Positions 44,007-58,725 of a stretch of 64,000 nucleotides of DNA are shown piece by piece. A program made the position numbers and the translations under genes. The DNA is from Eledone cirrhosa. Its lineage: Eukaryota. The first letter of the stretch is position 1. Each line of letters begins with the position of its first letter. The notes beneath the pieces are model-generated. The model saw only the letters and a program-made list of their open reading frames with translations. It did no database searches and had not been told where the DNA came from. The DNA is taken from assembly GCA_964016885.1 (NCBI GenBank), contig CAXHJY010000304.1, forward strand, positions 140,070 to 204,069, read 5' to 3'.

Positions 44007-44896
44007 GTATGTATATATGTATGTATGTATATATGTATGTATGTATATATATGTATGTATATATGTATGTATGTATATATATGTATGTATATATGTATGT
44101 ATGTATGTATATATGTATGTATGTTTATATATTGACCACGTCTTGACCAAACAAAATATAATATTTTCACCAAAAACTGCCCTTTAAACACGTCAGATGG
44201 ATTACAATATTCATTATCACAATTACTTTCACTGTTCCCTGACAACTAGTACCAGTTTCAAGATAGAATTATCTTAACGAAGTATATATAATTTCACTTG
44301 ATTTTCGCCAACGAACCACGTGTGGACATGGACGGGGAAAAAAAACAAAACAAATCACTACGTCCCTTAAGGATCGCAGTAAGTACTCCACAAAACATAT
44401 AAACAACAATATACACACAGATTTATATACAGATACATACCATATGCATATACACACACGTGAAAAGAAACCACACTATTGCGTGTGAGACACTATACCG
44501 GCCAATTTTACCAATTTACATTGGTAAAATATTTCTTAACATTGACCTCGCTTCTAACCCACATACACCTTTTAATTATATATATATACTAGCAGCTGAA
44601 AGTTAATAATTTGAAAAAAAAATATTATTGAAAGTTTACTATAAAGAAGCAGTATCAGGGAATAAAAAAAAAAAAAAAAAAAAAAACGTTATTCGCTGTT
44701 AATAAACAACTGCCTTCTACAGTACGTTTCATTTAACTTTCGCAGCATATTTATTTGTTTACATGCACAGACTCTTCTACACACACACAACATTTAGGAA
44801 AACGGAAACAAAATACACAAAAAAAACAGACATTTTATTTCTATCGTAATCAAGTGCGCTAAACCTATATTGTTTACATTCTGTGTTTTTCTACGG

Positions 44897-46126
44897 ATGG
44901 GTAGAAATAACAAAATTGCCATGGTGATGTCCATCGATGAAATTTGCGACAAAACTGGTCGATGTCCAAAAATAGAACATTGCCCGGAAGATCACACCTG
45001 CCATATCTGTACGGAACCCGAAAACTCGTTCCGTAATCGCTGGGTCGAATGTGGAACCTGTCGCATCTCTGTCTGCCTTCAATGCGCCACAGGCTTCCGG
45101 AAGATCCCAGGCCAAAATAAGAAACATCACATTGCTACGATGGATAGACTCTGGGAGATGGTCCAGCTAACAAACTGGTCCTTTCAGTGCCTGGGCTGTA
45201 TGCCTGCTTCTCCCATTACTGCGGAACAACAACAAAGACCGAAGATCGTGTCTTCTACCATTGTTCCTGAACAACAACAACAAAAACCGAGGATCGTGTC
45301 TTCCTCTACCATTGTCGCTGAACAACAGCAAAAACCAACGACCGTAGCTTCTGCTACTACCCCCGTTGAAGGACTTCATCAACAACAGCAACCCATGTCT
45401 TCCTCACCCGTTACTTTTCAACAACAACAACCGACGACTGTGTCTTCTACCATTCCTGTTGAAGGAGAAGAACAACAACAAAAACCGACCGTCAATACGG
45501 AGTTTGAGGAAATACGGCAAATGATTTCCGCTTTAAGTCAAGAAATAGCGGAAATAAAATCAAGCGTTCGTGTAGAACCCCACAATGAGGGATCTTACCG
45601 GAGTGTCTTGTTAAAAAATCTCCGCGTACCTCATGTTGAACCTAGACGCATTGAGAATGCCACTGAAACTGCAAACCACGAAGTGATTGCCATCGGTGTG
45701 CCGGAAGACATAGTTGATCTTCAGGCATTTGCTACCAGTTCATCCAAAGACCTGGGCTGTGCTCCCGCAAAGGGTGCTCTACGCCTTGGCCGACCAGGCC
45801 CGAAACCCAGGTTAATTAGACTGTCGTTTTCAAACTCGGCTGAGGCACGTTCATACCTTGTAGCCTCTGATAAAGCTAGGCGTGAAAGTCGGATTGCTTT
45901 CCGAACACGTCCTGGTCTTCCACCTGATGTCCGCCCAAAGTTGCGTGCTGCAGCTTCCCTAAACCGCAGCTCGGCAGAACATGAAAGCTTCAGCCTACGA
46001 GATGATGGGCAGATATGGAGGTTTGTTAAGGCTGGCGAATCATGGAAAAGAGACACCAGCTGGTCTGAAAACAGTGTACCCACAACAACTGACAATAAAG
46101 AAACTGAAAAAACTCTGGGAAACTAA
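44897..46126 (+). CDS. LINE-A ORF1p (PHD-like zinc finger, Gln-rich repeats, coiled coil, RRM-like C-terminal part)
   Basis: First ATG at 44897. CHIC...WVECGTC...CLQC...FQCLGC; heptad segment FEEIRQMISALSQEIAEIKS; VIAIGVPE and RLGR...PRLIRLSF motifs typical of CR1/L2 ORF1. Confidence 0.88.
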   Translation: MGRNNKIAMVMSIDEICDKTGRCPKIEHCPEDHTCHICTEPENSFRNRWVECGTCRISVCLQCATGFRKIPGQNKKHHIATMDRLWEMVQLTNWSFQCLGCMPASPITAEQQQRPKIVSSTIVPEQQQQKPRIVSSSTIVAEQQQKPTTVASATTPVEGLHQQQQPMSSSPVTFQQQQPTTVSSTIPVEGEEQQQKPTVNTEFEEIRQMISALSQEIAEIKSSVRVEPHNEGSYRSVLLKNLRVPHVEPRRIENATETANHEVIAIGVPEDIVDLQAFATSSSKDLGCAPAKGALRLGRPGPKPRLIRLSFSNSAEARSYLVASDKARRESRIAFRTRPGLPPDVRPKLRAAASLNRSSAEHESFSLRDDGQIWRFVKAGESWKRDTSWSENSVPTTTDNKETEKTLGN

Positions 46127-46185
46127 ATCAGAACAACCTGCCATCCCCTGCACATAATCATAGACTGGAATCAAAGTACAAACTG

Positions 46186-48945
46186 TTGTCCTTGAATGCA
46201 CGTAGTCTATGCAATAAGATTCATCTTTTTGACTCCTACGTCAAAAGTATCAACCCGGACTTCATTACAGTCACGGAAACTTGGGCACATCCCTTACTCT
46301 GTGATGGGGTTTTCAGCATGACTGGCTACAACCTGTTTCGTAAAGACCGTATTAATCGTCGTGGTGGTGGTGTAATGGTCTACGTTCGGTCAAATCTGTC
46401 GGCAATTCCTTGTGCTGATTTGAACCAATCACAGCAGGAAGTTTTTTTCTGCGATATACGTATGACCATGTCAACACTGCTACTTGGAGTCGTTTACCGT
46501 CCCCCAAATTACCATCAGGACACTCAACTTTGTGATATCCTCAGAGCTGCTGCCAGGAAGACAGCCACTTATGTTTTCATTGCAGGTGACTTCAATCACC
46601 CTGAGATTGACTGGGAGACCTTTCGTTGGCCGCCAAGTGCAAATGACTTCCTTGAGCTGGTGCTGGACTCGAGTTGGTCCCAGGTGGTCACCTCCCCAAC
46701 GAGAGGTGACAACACTTTGGACCTACTCTTCACCACTACTCCTGAAACGGTCATTAGTGTTACTGCTGAGGAACCTTTAGGTGACTCTGATCATGCTATG
46801 ATCATTGCCAATCTATCCCTCATGGGCAGTAACAAGAACCACAACCATCTCCAAACTGCTCACTTTGACTGGAATAGAGCAGACTGGAACTGTTACTGCA
46901 CCGAGTTGCAACGGCCAAACTGGCTTGAGTTCTATGACTCTGGAGATGTCAACACTGTACTCCAGAACATCCTGAGCTCAATATGGACAGCATGTGCAGC
47001 ATCGGTGCCACGTAAGCGGAAAAAACATCCTAAAAGCGCAATTTGGGAGACTGCAGCAGTCCGTCTTGCCAGAAAAGAACGGCGCAATGCTGAACGTGAG
47101 TACAAACTTCACAAATCAGACATTAATAGGAAGAGGCGAAATAGATCGTCCAACCACCTCAAACAGGTGACAAAAAAGGCAGTGCTTCAATTTGAGCAGC
47201 GCATAGCAACCAGCCCTGACAGTAAGGTGTTCTGGAAGTATGTTCACTCAAAGCAGAGGCCTCACTCTCCAGTTGGTCCTCTTCGCAATCCCCACACAAG
47301 CCAGGTTACTGACGACCCCAAGGAATGCGCAGAGCTCATTGCTGAATGCTATGCAGGCATTTTCACCATTGAAGACCAGAGTGTACCATCTCCACCACCT
47401 ATGACACCGGACTCTATTACAACCATGGAATTTACACCTGCAATGCTGCGACGTCACCTAAAAAATAAACGCAACCATGCCTCTCCTGGTCTTGATGGTG
47501 TTACATACCTGCTTCTTAAACGTGGTGGGTACTTCCTTCTACGCCAGTTATCACGCTTCTTCCAATTCTGTCTGAACAACAGTGCTACTCCAGAACAGTG
47601 GAAAACTGCCAGTGTAATTCCTCTGTTCAAAAAGGGTGACCGCACATCACCTGTGAACTATCGTCCAGTCAGTCTTACTAGTTGCATCGCCAAACTGATG
47701 GAATCCTGTGTCAGAGAAACACTTTGGAACTTCTGGAGCTCTCACAGTCTTATCCGGCCTTCGCAATTTGGATTTATCCCCAACTCCAGCTGCTGTGATC
47801 AACTTATAGAGTTTCTTGAGGACATCACCCGGATCACTGATGGCGGCTCATGGGTGGATGTTGTTTACCTTGACTTTGCGAAGGCCTTCAATTCTGTGCC
47901 GCACAAAAGGCTTATGGCAAAACTCTCTGCAATGGGTGTGAAGGATGATCTTTTTAACTGGTTGAAGTCCTTCATTCTCAGTCGAAGAGAGGTAGTCACG
48001 GTTCTGGGACAGCATTCCTCACCATATGAGATGTCATCTGGTGTACCTCAGGGATCTGTTCTTGGCCCCCTTTTGTTTGTGGCATATATTAATGACATAG
48101 ATGCCAACTTAAGGAATGCCACAGTACTAAAGTACGCAGACGACATCAAGCTGTACCTTGAGATAAAAAGGACAGATCCTGAACACTATAGATCTTGCTT
48201 GCAGTCTGACCTGGACACAATGCAACAGTGGATCTCAGACTGGCAACTCAAGCTAGCTGTGGACAAGTGCACCACCATGCATTTTGGGAGTAAAAACCCA
48301 GCGTCCACATATTCCCTCCACAGCACTAATATCAAGAAGTCTTCCTGTGAACGTGACCTGGGCATTACGGTCAGCAGCGATTTGCGTTGGACGAGGCACG
48401 TCTCTAAAATTGTCAAGAGGGCCGAGGGTGTCTTAGCATCACTCAGCAAGACCTTTGTCAGCCGCTCTCCAGATATCTATTTAAGGCTGTATACAGCTAT
48501 GGTGCGACCACACTTAGAATTTGCATCACCAGTCTGGAACCCCTATCTTGCTCAGGACATTGACCGCCTGGAAACTGTTCAGAGACGTGCAACCAAGCGA
48601 ATACCCTCCATCAGGCATCTACCATACTCTGATCGCCTTGCTTCCCTGGGCATGGATTCATTGAAGCTCCGACGCCTGGCAACTGACTTGGTAAACACCC
48701 ACAAAATTGTTAACCATGTTGCCAACAACAACCCTGAGTGCCTTTTCGATTTCCATGTGTCTAACACACGTGGACATGCCCACAAAGTAAGAAAACAGCA
48801 CAGTTCCCATGACTTTCGGAAACATTTTTTCACGCTCAGAGTTGCTGAAGCATGGAACAAACTACCTGCATCAGTTGTTAGCTGTCGAGACGCTGCATCC
48901 TTTAAGGCCTCCATGCTTCCCGAGATCCGCCAACACTACAGCTAA
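46186..48945 (+). CDS. LINE-A ORF2p (APE endonuclease plus reverse transcriptase), uninterrupted
   Basis: LNARS, VTETW, GGGV, YRPP, GDFN, LDL, SDH, NYRPVSLTS, YLDFAKAF, GVPQGSVLGP, YADD, RPHLEFASPVWNP and TRGH. The start shown is a TTG; the frame is already open at 46117. Confidence 0.95.
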   Translation: MSLNARSLCNKIHLFDSYVKSINPDFITVTETWAHPLLCDGVFSMTGYNLFRKDRINRRGGGVMVYVRSNLSAIPCADLNQSQQEVFFCDIRMTMSTLLLGVVYRPPNYHQDTQLCDILRAAARKTATYVFIAGDFNHPEIDWETFRWPPSANDFLELVLDSSWSQVVTSPTRGDNTLDLLFTTTPETVISVTAEEPLGDSDHAMIIANLSLMGSNKNHNHLQTAHFDWNRADWNCYCTELQRPNWLEFYDSGDVNTVLQNILSSIWTACAASVPRKRKKHPKSAIWETAAVRLARKERRNAEREYKLHKSDINRKRRNRSSNHLKQVTKKAVLQFEQRIATSPDSKVFWKYVHSKQRPHSPVGPLRNPHTSQVTDDPKECAELIAECYAGIFTIEDQSVPSPPPMTPDSITTMEFTPAMLRRHLKNKRNHASPGLDGVTYLLLKRGGYFLLRQLSRFFQFCLNNSATPEQWKTASVIPLFKKGDRTSPVNYRPVSLTSCIAKLMESCVRETLWNFWSSHSLIRPSQFGFIPNSSCCDQLIEFLEDITRITDGGSWVDVVYLDFAKAFNSVPHKRLMAKLSAMGVKDDLFNWLKSFILSRREVVTVLGQHSSPYEMSSGVPQGSVLGPLLFVAYINDIDANLRNATVLKYADDIKLYLEIKRTDPEHYRSCLQSDLDTMQQWISDWQLKLAVDKCTTMHFGSKNPASTYSLHSTNIKKSSCERDLGITVSSDLRWTRHVSKIVKRAEGVLASLSKTFVSRSPDIYLRLYTAMVRPHLEFASPVWNPYLAQDIDRLETVQRRATKRIPSIRHLPYSDRLASLGMDSLKLRRLATDLVNTHKIVNHVANNNPECLFDFHVSNTRGHAHKVRKQHSSHDFRKHFFTLRVAEAWNKLPASVVSCRDAASFKASMLPEIRQHYS

Positions 48946-49038
48946 CACATACAAACATGTACTTCCCTGGCATTTGTGTATTATTCTATGTACTATATTG
49001 ACGAGTTGTAGTGCACCTGAGCACTTTACACAATAATT

Positions 49039-49076
<38 letters not shown>

Positions 49077-49120
49077 GTATGTATGGAGGCACATGGCTTA
49101 GTGGTTATATATGTATGTAT

Positions 49121-55438: not shown

Positions 55439-58400
55439 ACTTTGAATAACTTTGAAATGTTTTGGCCAGTATTGGCCCAGGCCATGTCTAACTTAATAGC
55501 ACCACCTGGCGAAGTCTTTCAATTCAGGATTTGGGCACCATGGCCCATTCGAGAAGAGAATTACTGTTTGCGGAGACATATCCGGGTGTGGGTGGTTTGT
55601 CCGGGATTACTTGGAGGAATTTGTCCAAAGACTTCTTGAATTTTGTGTGGTCAGTTTCTGTTTTGACGTGTCCTGGTGTGATGTTGAAGAGAGCAGGGCC
55701 GATTGAGGTGAAATAATTGTGCCGTATTGTTGTTATGAGTTGCGATTTAGATTTTTGAATGGGACGGATAGCACGGGGCCCAAGCCTTGGGTGTATCTTG
55801 AAGGCGATGCCAACATCATTTGGGCAGTGATGATGGAACATTTTCCACATCATGCAGATAATATAACGCTCACGGCGACGTTGGAGTGAGTAAAGTTTCA
55901 GGTTTTCCAATCGACCCCAGTAGTCAAGGTCTGACATGCCATCTATCTTTTTCGTGATTGCCCTTTGAGGAGCTTCAAGTTTCATGATACTTTGTTTCGT
56001 GTGGGGAGACCACAGTGGACAACAGTATTCAAGGTGTGGTCGGGCGAAAGTAGAGAAGAGAAGGATAATGGTGCGGGAATCTCTCGACTGGAAGGTTCTG
56101 AGGATCCAGGAACACATTCTGCGGGCCATGTCAACTTTGCTGCTTATATGCGTGGTCCAGCTTATGTTGCTGTCCACGGTTACTCCCAAGTCTCTGATGT
56201 TGTTAGATGCCACGAGAGTTTCCCCGGAGGGAAGGGAGTACGGGAGTTTCAGAGCATCCTCTTTTCCAAAGTGGATCAGTTCGAATTTGTCTTCGTTCAG
56301 TAACATGTTGTTCTTTTCTGCCCATTGGGTAACAGCCAGTAGGTCTGACTGAAGGCTTATCCGGTCATCCACGCCATTGATGACCTTTTGGAGCTTGGAA
56401 TCATCAGCGAAAATTTTAATGTTGCTGTGTTTGATGATGTCAGTGATGTCATTAATATAGATGATGAAGAGAAGTGGGCCCAACACAGTGCCTTGTGGGA
56501 CTCCACTACTGACTTTGGCTGGGCTTGATTTGACTCCCTCAACTACAACATGTTGGGTTCTGTTTGACAGGAAGCTCTTGATCCACTGCAGCAGCTTTCC
56601 AGTGACACCAATATTGGACAGCTTTCTCAGTAGAATGTTATGATCAACCCTGTCAAAGGCCTTGCTGAAATCAAGGTAGATAACATCAGTGTTGGAACCC
56701 TCTCCCAAGGCTCTCAAAATGTCATCAAAGTGATGCAGTAGTTGCGTCAGGCAATCCCTTCCATTACGGAATCCATGCTGGTTGGAGTTCAGCATATTGT
56801 TACTCTCAAGGAAGTGGGTCATTCGCGATCTCACCACTCGCTCAAATACCTTAATGATATGAGAGGTGAGTGAGATTGGACGGTAATTTACGGCAAGGGA
56901 TTTGTTTCCCTTTTTGAAAACTGGGACAACAGACTGGGATAGGTTTTCTGGCACATATCCAGCATCCAGTGAGTTCCGCCACAGATTGGCAAGAGGAGAA
57001 GCAAGTTGGTGTTGACACGCCTTCAAGACACAAGCAGGGAACCTATCGGGACCTACTGCTGAATTATGCTTGATTTCCTTTATTGCCGCCAAGACATCAG
57101 GGGCGCCAAACGTTATGTCCGATAAGGTGTAATGGGGAGTAACATCGCCGATACAGCCCAGATCGGCCATATCAGGATTGCTGAAAACAGAGCAGTATTG
57201 TTTCTGCAGTATCTCACCCATGGTTTTAGCATTGTCTTGAAGAGTGCCATTTTCATCAATTAGAGGGCCAACAGTAGAGCCAGTGATTTTGTGTTTTTTT
57301 GCAAATGAAAAGAACACTTTGGGATTGAGTTTGATCTTCTCAATGGCCCAGGCCTCTTCAGCTCTTCTCTGATTGTTGATGAGGGACATTATGTTGTTTT
57401 GGAGGTTATGTTTTTTAATCTCTAGTGATGAAATGGCAGTCAAGTTGATGTGTTGCTGCTGACAGTATTTCAGCTTGTTGATTTTTTTGTTCGTTCTCTT
57501 AATTTTTCTGATGAGCGTTTTTCTATTTCTAGGGATTCTGCTCTTAGATTTGTTTATAGTTCTTAATGGGGTGTGTTTAGCACATATGTTTGTAACAGTG
57601 TCCACAAATGTCTGCCAGGACTTTTTGATGTTAGTGGGTGTATGAGTGTGCGTGAAGGACCAGTCGACATGTGCAAGATCATGACTGATCGCTTCCCAGT
57701 TTGCATTGTGGAAATCCATAGCGTCAAACGGATGGACAGGAGAGATGACATTGGGTTTGTATATTGGACGGTGGAATCTCAGATCACAGAGAACCATGTC
57801 ATGATCAGAGAGTAGAGTTTTCTCCACTGCAATATTGTGGATATTGTCAGTGTGATTGCTGAAAATTAAGTCTAGGACGTTTTTGTGGCACCTCGTTGGT
57901 TCGAGCACTAGTTGGGATAGGAAGAAATCATCCATGAAGTCAAGAAGCGATTCCACAGCTTCCCTGTCAGAGGTTGAGGCAGAAGAACCTGGTGGCAGGG
58001 TGTTTGTGGACCAGTCAACTCCGGGGAGGTTGAAGTCCCCTATCATTAAGATGTTGTCAGGGTGACACTCTTGGATGAAACACTTTATGCTGTTGAGGCA
58101 TTCCTTGAAGCATGGTACAGGCGTTTGGGGTGGCCTATAGAGCCCAACTACTAATAGGTTGTTGGTTTGACTGAATACAGTGACTGCCTCACAGTATCCA
58201 TTAGTGAATATGTTCATAGCCTCTGTTGAGAAAGAATTATGGACATAAATGGCAGTTCCGCCCTTTCTTCTGCCAGCCCGATCAGCACGGATGGCTTTGA
58301 AATTTTTCACTTTCACCTCGGCTTCCAAGTGGAGGTTACTGAGATGGGTTTCAGTGAGGACGAAGAAAGGGATGTGGTTTGGATGGACATCAATCCAGTC

Positions 58401-58725
58401 CTCCAGGAATTTGATCTTCCATTTTTGAGTATTGGTGGAAGGGCTGATGCCTTGGGCGTTAAGCAAAAATGTAGAGGCGAGAGTGGATGGTTTTAATTGT
58501 TTTGGTGTGTTGTTAATTTGTTTGTTTGTTAATGGCAGCAATGGGAGTTTGTGCAGTGGGGTGATAGTGGAGGGTGGTGCTGGGTGATAGCTCGAATGTT
58601 TTTTTCCAGTTCTTTTGCCAGATTCATTATGGCTAAAAAAGAGGAAGAAGTTTCCTGTTTAGAAGACTGTTGGTGACTGTGGTAGTGGTTATTTTTATGT
58701 AGGTTATGGTTTTTGTTTTTGCTTT
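55437..58725 (-). mobile_element. CR1-group LINE (LINE-B), 5'-truncated within ORF1, ORF2 intact
   Basis: About 60 codons of a putative ORF1 C-terminus, a full ORF2, and an ~85-bp 3' UTR ending (TTCAAAGTTA)2. Both ends abut TA/TATG arrays. Confidence 0.9.
55524..58541 (-). CDS. LINE-B ORF2p (APE endonuclease plus reverse transcriptase), uninterrupted 1005 aa
   Basis: [67 protein letters not shown] and SLQRRRERY. The start shown is a TTG. Confidence 0.95.

Follow-up and report, generated by a model that had tools for sequence, protein, structure and literature searches.

How the enzyme of a two-ORF retrotransposon is translated is the question raised by this locus. The stretch of Eledone cirrhosa DNA analysed (the window, 64,000 nt) carries a LINE, here LINE-A, whose ORF2 is in the -1 frame relative to ORF1 and has no start codon that could serve it; it is likely reached by ribosomes that slip backward by a single base. 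The original prediction was precisely this, a -1 frameshift at a G_GGA_AAC heptamer yielding an ORF1-ORF2 fusion.

The LINE-A element

44132..49072, + strand: LINE-A, a young and almost complete non-LTR retrotransposon of CR1 type (the 5' end is approximate, and the 3' end is an (ATT)n tail)
44897..46126, + strand: ORF1, 409 aa, ending Gly-Asn-stop
46105..46107, + strand: TGA closing the ORF2 frame upstream, which leaves a 19-nt ORF1/ORF2 overlap
46108..48945, + strand: ORF2, -1 frame, 945 aa from stop to stop, APE endonuclease (EN) plus reverse transcriptase (RT)
46117..46123, + strand: slippery heptamer G_GGA_AAC, in X_XXY_YYZ phase in ORF1, directly 5' of its stop
46124..46126, + strand: ORF1 stop TAA, abutting the heptamer on its 3' side, a likely pause site or stimulator
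48946..49072, + strand: 3' UTR, containing the ATT tail and a short hairpin, GTGC-ACCTGA-GCAC (recognized by eye)

One other copy (L209) matches LINE-A at 99% across 44132-49084, and all 40 copies scored, out of 1398 candidates, were 100% identical (rounded) over 601 nt. The 200 kb of neighbouring genome held only one further family-A copy, a broken one, and the 25 pattern matches in viral contigs included no relatives. LINEs of the CR1 group end in a microsatellite and not in poly(A), and the tail of LINE-A is indeed (ATT)10.7 (49041-49072). ORF2 has Pfam matches above the cut-off to PF03372, PF14529 and PF00078, i.e., APE endonuclease and RT; a PDB sequence search with the EN gave no matches. 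Its named database matches, unclassified RT proteins from birds, turtles and schistosomes, look CR1-like to us, and the tree behind the provisional CR1 assignment was built from the EN with no L2 or Jockey outgroups. ORF1 consists of an N-terminal Cys/His cluster (PHD-like by eye), a Gln-rich linker, a predicted helix and an alpha/beta region. The Cys/His cluster is conserved, two homologues (P0122 and P0123) start at the same MGR, and the C-terminus of a third (P0121) is VGN, that is, also Gly-Asn. Of the type IIC/IIIB layout (PHD plus RRM/Tnp22), in which an RRM-like domain comes after a PHD finger, ORF1 shows the conserved Cys/His cluster; no Pfam family scored above the cut-off, and the AlphaFold model (pLDDT 43.5) was too poor to be used in a fold search. 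Unlike the ORF1 of vertebrate CR1, that of LINE-A is not of the esterase type.

The ORF1/ORF2 junction

Direct reading of the letters at the end of ORF1 gives CTG GGA AAC TAA, which confirms the heptamer in the predicted phase before the stop. Because the TGA at 46105-46107 closes the ORF2 frame upstream, any shift must fall within the 19-nt overlap. In ORF2 the EN Asn is residue 30 (46195), the ETW Glu residue 57 and the first ATG residue 71 (46318), past both, as had been claimed. Near-cognate codons are found in the ORF2 frame 5' of the Asn (CTG at 46138, 46165 and 46183; TTG at 46186 and 46192). The first Leu of LSLNARS does lie at 46186, where it had been placed; another Leu (the CTG at 46183) precedes it. 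The UAAUG of SART1 is absent from the ORF1 stop, which reads TAA ATC with no ORF2-frame ATG until 46318, and the 2A motif D(V/I)ExNPGP was found neither in LINE-A nor in the loci surveyed below (0/50). With the ORF1 residues fixed, synonymous codon choice would produce a phased heptamer in this overlap with P = 0.26, so the single LINE-A site is weak evidence; it is conservation and the survey that make it more than chance.

Conservation in relatives and other families

Family A has 192 copies with exact flanks, and the heptamer is present in 94 of the 100 listed. A search of the same genome with distant endonucleases returned mostly A and its sister family A2; 40 of 47 EN-bearing loci had heptamer and stop in frame, the remaining seven being four truncated or rearranged reads and three members of family C (see below). 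Since the copies of family A hardly differ from one another, conservation within the family (30/30 copies) was not counted as a sign of selection, and the unchanged heptamer in contigs of four sequencing runs (among the 40 matches listed; 162 others) was likewise not used.

More informative are the relatives, on which the prediction had been staked beforehand, and there it held, with heptamer and stop kept in A2 and in a more distant relative, L063. In A2 they are G_GGA_AAC and TAA, within a strikingly invariant stretch:

46111..46142, + strand: junction island of families A and A2, 31/32 nt identical, with flanks at 27/40 and 28/40 (67-70%)

From about 45090 to 46775 no second 32-nt window of this kind occurs, and the four-fold sites of the EN are identical at 56/85. 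Counted from the EN Asn, the first Met comes 60 residues on in A2 vs 41 in A, so the ORF2 ATG of LINE-A is not conserved. Both families have ORF2-frame CTG codons at 46138 and 46165. They also have in common the 15 nt 3' of the ORF1 stop. L063 has 59% EN identity to LINE-A and belongs to the same EN-tree clade. Its ORF1 ends CAG GGA AAC TAG, and the sequence beyond is unrelated to that of LINE-A; the CUG and UUG codons of LINE-A are missing, none of CTG, TTG, GTG or ACG occurs there, and an ATG lies two codons 5' of the EN Asn. Together, the island, L063 and the synonymous-codon null of the survey indicate nucleotide-level conservation beyond the needs of the protein.

A second LINE in the window, LINE-B, is unrelated to LINE-A and also has its ORF2 in the -1 frame:

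55524..58658, - strand: LINE-B ORF2, 1044 aa, EN plus RT
58634..58640, - strand: U_UUU_UUA, phased in LINE-B ORF1, with the TAA of the ORF2 frame 18 nt upstream

No ATG occurs in the 66 codons 5' of its EN Asn, and ORF1 continues for 34 codons to a TAA at 58531-58529. This ORF1 is 5'-truncated in the window copy; full copies carry two CCCH-type fingers, and a 90-nt junction stretch is identical in 20/20 copies. Family C, again unrelated, has the same -1 layout as A and B; in 10 of the 12 copies read, a phased G_GAU_UUU follows the stop of the ORF2 frame by 3 nt, and there is also a C_CCA_AAA near the ORF1 stop.

Survey of public CR1-type loci

The original prediction had called for a survey of heptamer phase, and across CR1-type loci the enrichment proved strong and phase specific. 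Among 80 public loci, ORF1 and ORF2 overlap in -1 in 59, in +1 in 4 and are in frame in 6, with 11 lacking a clear ORF1. Dereplication left 50 -1 loci (median EN identity, 32%), which are related, 43 of their ORF1s falling in one BLAST cluster. A strict heptamer is in phase in 22/50; the two other phases yield 4 and 3, and ORF1 control windows 19/420. For a relaxed set (XXX = GGA/GGU/GUU), defined only after inspection of the survey data, the count is 41/50 vs 5 and 13, with 41/420 in the controls. A null that conditions on the ORF1 residues, so that joint constraint on the two proteins may remain, predicts 10.2 strict (P = 1e-5) and 15.9 relaxed heptamers (P about 1e-16). With one pick per clade (11 groups, relaxed set, discovery families A and B included), about 9.2 were found vs 3.4 expected (median P = 1e-4). 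The heptamer lies at a median of 12 nt after the ORF2-frame stop, and in 33/41 it is in the first third of the overlap. The nine loci without any listed heptamer all share G_GGG_GA(C/A).

Start codons 5' of the EN Asn are scarce. No ATG was found there in 29/50 loci; in 10 it occurs only within four codons of the Asn, and in 11 five or more codons away. CTG is present in only 15/50, neither ATG nor CTG in 21, and in 4 there is none of ATG, CTG, GTG, TTG or ACG. The in-frame junctions have a different signature, UGA in 6/6 and UGA-C, a readthrough context, in 5/6; in the -1 class the corresponding figures for the stop of ORF1 are 5/50 and 0/50 (Fisher, 1e-5 and 2e-6).

Search for stimulatory RNA structure

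Retroviral sites usually have a stem-loop or pseudoknot 5-9 nt downstream, and none was detected among nested folds in three windows 3' of the LINE-A site (MFE z = +1.44, -0.06 and +1.51), in agreement with the earlier remark that no obvious pseudoknot is present. LINE-B gave no local 3' structure either, and the survey gave no general signal (z <= -2 in 6/50 vs 3/50 for each control; P = 0.035 against the upstream control and 0.37 against the ORF2 control). Pairing of the shift site with the 3' end of the element was not significant in LINE-A (p = 0.94; a hand-picked duplex reached -7 kcal/mol), A2 (p = 0.35) or B (0.37), and p < 0.1 was found in 4/25. The best partner common to A and A2 for the island, anywhere in the element, had -14.3 kcal/mol, within the range of 20 shuffles. 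The label "retrovirus-style" thus holds for heptamer and layout and fails for the stimulatory structure: the site would act in a retrovirus-like way, yet we do not class it as structure-stimulated because no 3' structure was found. A heptamer with no such structure may shift at a low rate. Given the negative folds, we assign roughly even chances, within the frameshifting model, to the adjacent stop codon being the stimulator in place of RNA structure.

Alternative routes to ORF2

Ribosomes could instead terminate at the ORF1 stop and, as in L1 and SART1, reinitiate just beyond it at a near-cognate CUG (46138 or 46165) or UUG (46186), producing a separate ORF2p, with the heptamer incidental. 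AUG-independent initiation of L1 ORF2 was reportedly described by Alisch in 2006. The CTG at 46138 has an A at -3 and persists in A2; a UGGGA, which we take to be a calicivirus TURBS-like motif, lies 8 nt 5' of the stop in both A and A2, and L063 has its ATG two codons 5' of the EN Asn. Translation of ORF2 relies on that of ORF1 in SART1 and human L1, according to the available parts of PMC2881922 and PMC10275272. We nevertheless regard reinitiation as unlikely: L063 has no UGGGA and none of the four near-cognate codons but still carries the heptamer, CTG is restricted to 15/50 loci, and 4/50 lack any common start codon. Reinitiation also predicts no frame preference, phased heptamer or UGA-C bias, and what is seen is 59 vs 4 vs 6, 41/50 and 5/6, respectively. 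As candidate signals, UAAUG, the 2A peptide, the TURBS-like UGGGA and A-run slippage were discarded, each being absent or not conserved.

It is very improbable that ORF2 is expressed from an RNA, either spliced or started internally, in which it is linked in frame to an AUG further upstream. There is a CAG at 46129-46131 from which the ORF2 frame would be entered, but its AG follows an A-rich stretch with no pyrimidine tract, the context differs in L063, and the phased heptamers and UGA-C of other families would be left unaccounted for. We give comparably little credence to the heptamer arising as a side effect of A-rich composition or of constraint from the two overlapping proteins (Gly-Asn in ORF1, Gly-Lys in ORF2), with the -1 layout otherwise caused, e.g., by transcriptional slippage along the run of A6 (46107-46112). 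Chance is not negligible in LINE-A itself (the P of 0.26 given above), and the run is prone to indels: in two copies (A4 and A7), independently of each other, the ORFs are fused in frame. However, the A-run is missing from A2, the enrichment survives both conditioning on ORF1 residues and one pick per clade, and unrelated ORF1 contexts hold different heptamers (G_GGA_AAC, U_UUU_UUA, A_AAA_AAC, U_UUA_AAC, as well as G_GAA_AAC). The fused copies are singletons (the A4 pattern has one genomic match) vs the 192 exact-flank copies with the shifted layout. That they form an active sub-lineage was rejected, as they represent two different single events.

Proposed mechanism

Production of LINE-A ORF2 as an ORF1-ORF2 fusion by programmed -1 frameshifting at G_GGA_AAC is therefore the reading we hold with good confidence; at the level of sequence, the conservation of heptamer and stop and the phase enrichment both support it. 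Most ribosomes would stop at the UAA and release ORF1p. A minority would pause as the stop codon enters the A site and slip, tRNA-Gly from GGA to GGG and tRNA-Asn from AAC to AAA, after which reading would continue through CUA AAU CAG into the endonuclease. The product would be a minor fusion of about 1,350 aa, giving a high ORF1p:ORF2p ratio and an enzyme tethered to ORF1p, as in Gag-Pol.

CR1-type LINEs in general likely follow the same logic, the minority with in-frame ORFs relying on UGA-C readthrough. A more general statement, which we favour by a small margin over its negation, is that these elements, which predominate among the retrotransposons of many animals, obey a Gag-Pol rule, EN-RT being made as a recoded fusion, mostly by a structure-free -1 shift (stop-assisted in LINE-A), in one lineage at G_GGG_GA(C/A), and by UGA-C readthrough in the in-frame lineages. 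If the fusion is real, it changes what "ORF2p" means for CR1-type elements, and wherever the first AUG is taken as the ORF2 start, engineered retrotransposition assays and annotations would lose the N-terminus of the endonuclease. From the survey comes a large natural collection of -1 sites in animals, apparently structure-free, as well as readthrough junctions and a candidate new slippery motif, G_GGG_GAM.

Comparison with known systems

The mechanism class is already known, and one non-LTR precedent is in print. Frameshifting was reportedly raised in the early chicken and turtle CR1 papers (1997). CR1-group LINEs share with LINE-A an ORF1, an APE-RT ORF2 and the microsatellite tail, and in the available text of two accounts of the group the word "frameshift" does not appear (PMC4120745, PMC13343379). 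How LINE ORF2 is translated is treated as an open question, the accessible portions of the reviews (PMC3894237, PMC2881922) naming reinitiation, IRES and 2A with no mention of frameshifting. SART1 and human L1 have, like LINE-A, a bicistronic RNA, with low ORF2 output dependent on ORF1 translation, as far as the available parts of PMC2881922, PMC10275272 and PMC3894237 go. In both, however, ORF2 has an AUG at its start or close to it (UAAUG in SART1) and yields a separate ORF2p, whereas LINE-A has no such AUG.

The original prediction had set the studied LINE ORF2s apart from frameshifting, which stands for L1 and SART1, which reinitiate, but not for TRE5-A and TRE3-A of Dictyostelium, whose ORF2 is stated to need a -1 frameshift in the part of PMC5911963 available. 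These are also APE-type non-LTR elements with two ORFs, in a different host, targeted to tRNA genes and with a zinc finger and an oligo(A) tail. The 2A/StopGo sequences of some CR1/L2 ORF2s are, from what is accessible of PMC3894237, another virus-like recoding that lowers ORF2, as proposed here; there 2A goes with loss of ORF1, while in LINE-A ORF1 is intact and 2A is missing.

In retroviral gag-pol and PEG10, as in LINE-A, a structural and an enzyme ORF overlap and the overlap holds an X_XXY_YYZ heptamer; lentiviruses and PEG10 use exactly G_GGA_AAC. LINE-A differs from gag-pol in being non-LTR and in having no protease to cut the fusion. The heptamer is among the most shift-prone, and PEG10 has a pseudoknot, according to the available sections of PMC5009743, whereas in LINE-A no 3' structure was found and the stop abuts the heptamer. 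A precedent for the adjacent stop is pea enation mosaic virus, a plant RNA virus in which, in the same partial source (PMC5009743), a stop just 3' of the shift site is needed for shifting; the stop is 3 nt downstream there and 0 nt in LINE-A, and the viral heptamer recurs in family C of this genome.

Junction layout in LINE-A

The young CR1-type element LINE-A is represented in the window by a nearly full-length copy, in which the two open reading frames overlap by 19 nt:

~44132-49072, + strand: LINE-A, near full-length
44897-46126, + strand: ORF1, ending CTG GGA AAC TAA
46105-46107, + strand: TGA closing the ORF2 frame upstream
46108-48945, + strand: ORF2, 945 aa stop to stop, with endonuclease (EN) and reverse transcriptase domains, in the -1 frame relative to ORF1

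Reading of the sequence places G_GGA_AAC in phase within the overlap. This layout matches the original prediction, which had a phased heptamer at the end of ORF1, ORF2 in -1, and the first ATG beyond the conserved EN Asn and Glu; in residues of ORF2, the Asn is 30, the Glu 57 and the first Met 71. Octopus vulgaris is the named source of four of the five ORF1 homologues, which makes an octopus the likely host. Taken alone, a phased heptamer in this overlap has a P of 0.26 given the ORF1 residues. The site is kept in 30/30 fetched family-A copies and in 94 of the 100 listed among 192 exact-flank matches, but the family is young, and such retention thus carries little information on selection. 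In the family-A copies L208 (G000:C3 19.22 Mb) and L059/L209 (G000:C4 367.25 Mb), two distinct single events have independently changed the A6 run to A7 and A4, so that both ORFs are read as a continuous frame of 1381 aa.

Conservation in close relatives

Conservation of the heptamer in relatives, on which the prediction depended, was found, with G_GGA_AAC plus stop present in both the sister family A2 (same genome, 12 loci fetched) and the metagenome locus L063. Families A and A2 are identical at 56/85 four-fold EN sites (66%), and a 32-nt island at the heptamer is identical at 31/32 positions, versus 27/40 and 28/40 in its flanks. The first Met of A2 is at a different position, likewise past the Asn. 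L063 has 59% EN identity to A and falls in the same starred clade of the tree; its ORF1 has a one-base break and ends CAG GGA AAC TAG, the sequence 3' of this stop is unrelated to A, and before the Asn it has no CUG, UUG, GUG or ACG, the sole start being an ATG two codons upstream. The ORF1 homologue P0121 (54%) also ends in Gly-Asn at the protein level. Judging from these sequences, it is the heptamer with its stop, rather than a start codon, that is retained across the lineage.

The 15 nt 3' of the ORF1 stop (46127-46142) are identical in A and A2, the remaining linker being 70% alike; a search for a pairing partner of these 15 nt found none. One A2 copy (L060) has a duplicated 3' UTR, with two hairpin-plus-ATT ends in succession. 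Dozens of A2 copies with equal scores lie on the same strand, ~30-90 kb apart, at G000:C28 124.7-126.35 Mb, and others at C178 and C1185; they are a large tandem segmental array with intact ORF2.

Other LINE families of the genome

Two unrelated families also have ORF2 in the -1 frame. LINE-B lies in the same window:

58658-55524, - strand: LINE-B
58640-58634, - strand: U_UUU_UUA, phased in LINE-B ORF1, 18 nt past the ORF2-frame stop

Its EN has ~30% identity to other families (a long branch in the tree), its ORF1 encodes CCCH-type fingers, and there is no ATG upstream of the Asn. The site layout is found in 20/20 copies, and the family has many copies with 100% identity over 576 nt. Family C (L215-L229; 22 matches, 15 fetched, 12 read) is older (~95% identity), with a long overlap and G_GAU_UUU 3 nt past a double stop in 10/12 copies read. 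A second candidate site, C_CCA_AAA, lies near the ORF1 stop in most of them; 3/12 count as having an ATG in the ORF2 frame, all through indel-bearing copies. Elsewhere in the window, a repeat unit, recognised in conceptual translation, recurs between long TATG/TA microsatellites (39.7-44.1, 49.4-50.2 and 63.1-63.8 kb) and looks like tandemly duplicated pieces of another retroelement.

Survey of ORF1-ORF2 junctions

A survey of heptamer phase, suggested with the original prediction for consensus sequences, was run on individual loci and found phased heptamers enriched. An EN-motif scan gave the best 80 of 494 metagenome relatives plus 2 loci from genome contigs; L071 and L138, with unaligned EN N-termini, were removed, leaving 80. 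ORF2 overlaps ORF1 in -1 in 59, in +1 in 4, is in frame in 6, and 11 have no clear ORF1; several of the 21 loci outside the -1 class are broken copies still showing a site (e.g., G_GAA_AAC displaced by one base in L067 and L097). Dereplication of the 59 at 80% EN identity left 50 loci (median identity 32%).

Strict heptamers were in phase in 22/50, versus 4 and 3 in the other two phases (controls, 19/420 ORF1 and 89/1045 ORF2 windows). With a relaxed set introduced after a first look at the junctions, also allowing GGA, GGU and GUU as XXX (akin to exceptions that PMC5009743 lists), the count was 41/50 versus 5 and 13 (controls, 41/420 and 165/1045). An exact null model, in which ORF1 codons are exchanged for synonyms and the -1 frame stays open, predicts 10.2 strict (P = 1e-5) and 15.9 relaxed sites (P ~1e-16). 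Since the loci are related, with 43 ORF1s falling into a single cluster and 20 sites being G_GAA_AAC within a single clade, the test was also run on one member per group for 11 groups (the EN tree supplied 8, to which A, B and C were added; L127 and L083, with short ORF2s, fall outside the tree), giving ~9.2 relaxed sites versus 3.4 expected (median P = 1e-4). In the 41 relaxed-set loci, sites lie a median 12 nt past the ORF2-frame stop, with U directly 3' in 34. Before the Asn, 29/50 loci have no ATG, 10 have one only within 4 codons and 11 farther upstream; 4/50 lack any common start codon. The G_GAA_AAC clade (e.g., L066, L083, L100) has a recurrent GUGGUAGG ~10-15 nt 3' of the heptamer, sometimes forming a 5-6 bp hairpin, which may reflect selection on the encoded VVG or act as a mild stimulator of shifting.

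The 9/50 loci without a listed heptamer (L064, L074, L082, L089, L110, L112, L113, L114, L133) all carry G_GGG_GA(C/A), at the position of G_GGA_AAC in the relative L123. Rare synonymous choices (NCG GGG) occur there in 9/9, which fall in two clades and are not nine independent events. This is a candidate non-canonical shift site, perhaps with P-site-only slippage.

The six in-frame loci (L102, L108, L117, L121, L140, L143; mutual EN identity 17-40%) all have a single UGA between ORF1 and ORF2, followed by C in five (CAA, CUA, CUG, CUU, CUC; the sixth, UUA), a pattern spotted post hoc. UGA is the ORF1 stop in 5/50 -1 loci, UGA-C in 0/50, and UGA-C closes 4/30 ORF2s. UGA-CUA/CGG is the type II readthrough context in alphaviruses (PMC13517186). 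By their sequence, these junctions are candidates for stop-codon readthrough in LINEs, an independent pointer to a fusion product; an ATG is also present before the Asn in 4/6.

Possible stimulators

No fold 3' of the sites in A and B was better than shuffles, and the survey loci as a whole folded only slightly better (mean z -0.37; z <= -2 in 6/50 versus 3/50 and 3/50 controls). Pairing of the site with the element's 3' end was unsupported in A, A2 and B, as it was in most of the 25 complete elements compared, and no partner common to A and A2 was found anywhere. The best candidate stimulator for LINE-A would be the ORF1 stop codon itself. Frameshifting is favoured where decoding is slow beside the site, and a stop-to-sense mutation of this kind was drastic in its effect in pea enation mosaic virus (PMC5009743). 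A stop lies within 3 nt of the site in just 3/50 survey loci, so other lineages would need something else or a low basal rate. Such a rate may suffice for ORF2p needs; little ORF2p is required, as argued in PMC3894237.

Mechanism and comparison with known systems

The junction of LINE-A is, on the comparative sequence evidence, real, conserved and of recoding type, and its ORF2 is probably made by -1 frameshifting, which would yield an ORF1-ORF2 fusion. Near-cognate reinitiation is viable for A alone, where the CUGs at 46138 and 46165 are common to A and A2, but predicts neither the frame bias nor the phased heptamers nor the UGA-C bias, and we consider it unlikely. Splicing as the source of ORF2 has little support and is highly improbable. 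That the heptamer is a by-product, or that transcriptional slippage is at work, is equally poorly supported and very improbable; the two fused A-run copies are separate single events.

Early CR1 papers reportedly raised frameshifting as a possibility, and no slippery site in CR1-type LINEs was described in the full-text literature searched, where subscription and 1990s papers are sparse. Non-LTR coverage in the part of PMC5009743 available is of HeT-A and TART only. For Dictyostelium TRE5-A and TRE3-A, a -1 frameshift is stated as required (PMC5911963). Gag-Pol frameshifting usually has a 3' structure, whereas none was found in LINE-A, but the LINE-A junction is predicted to work alike.
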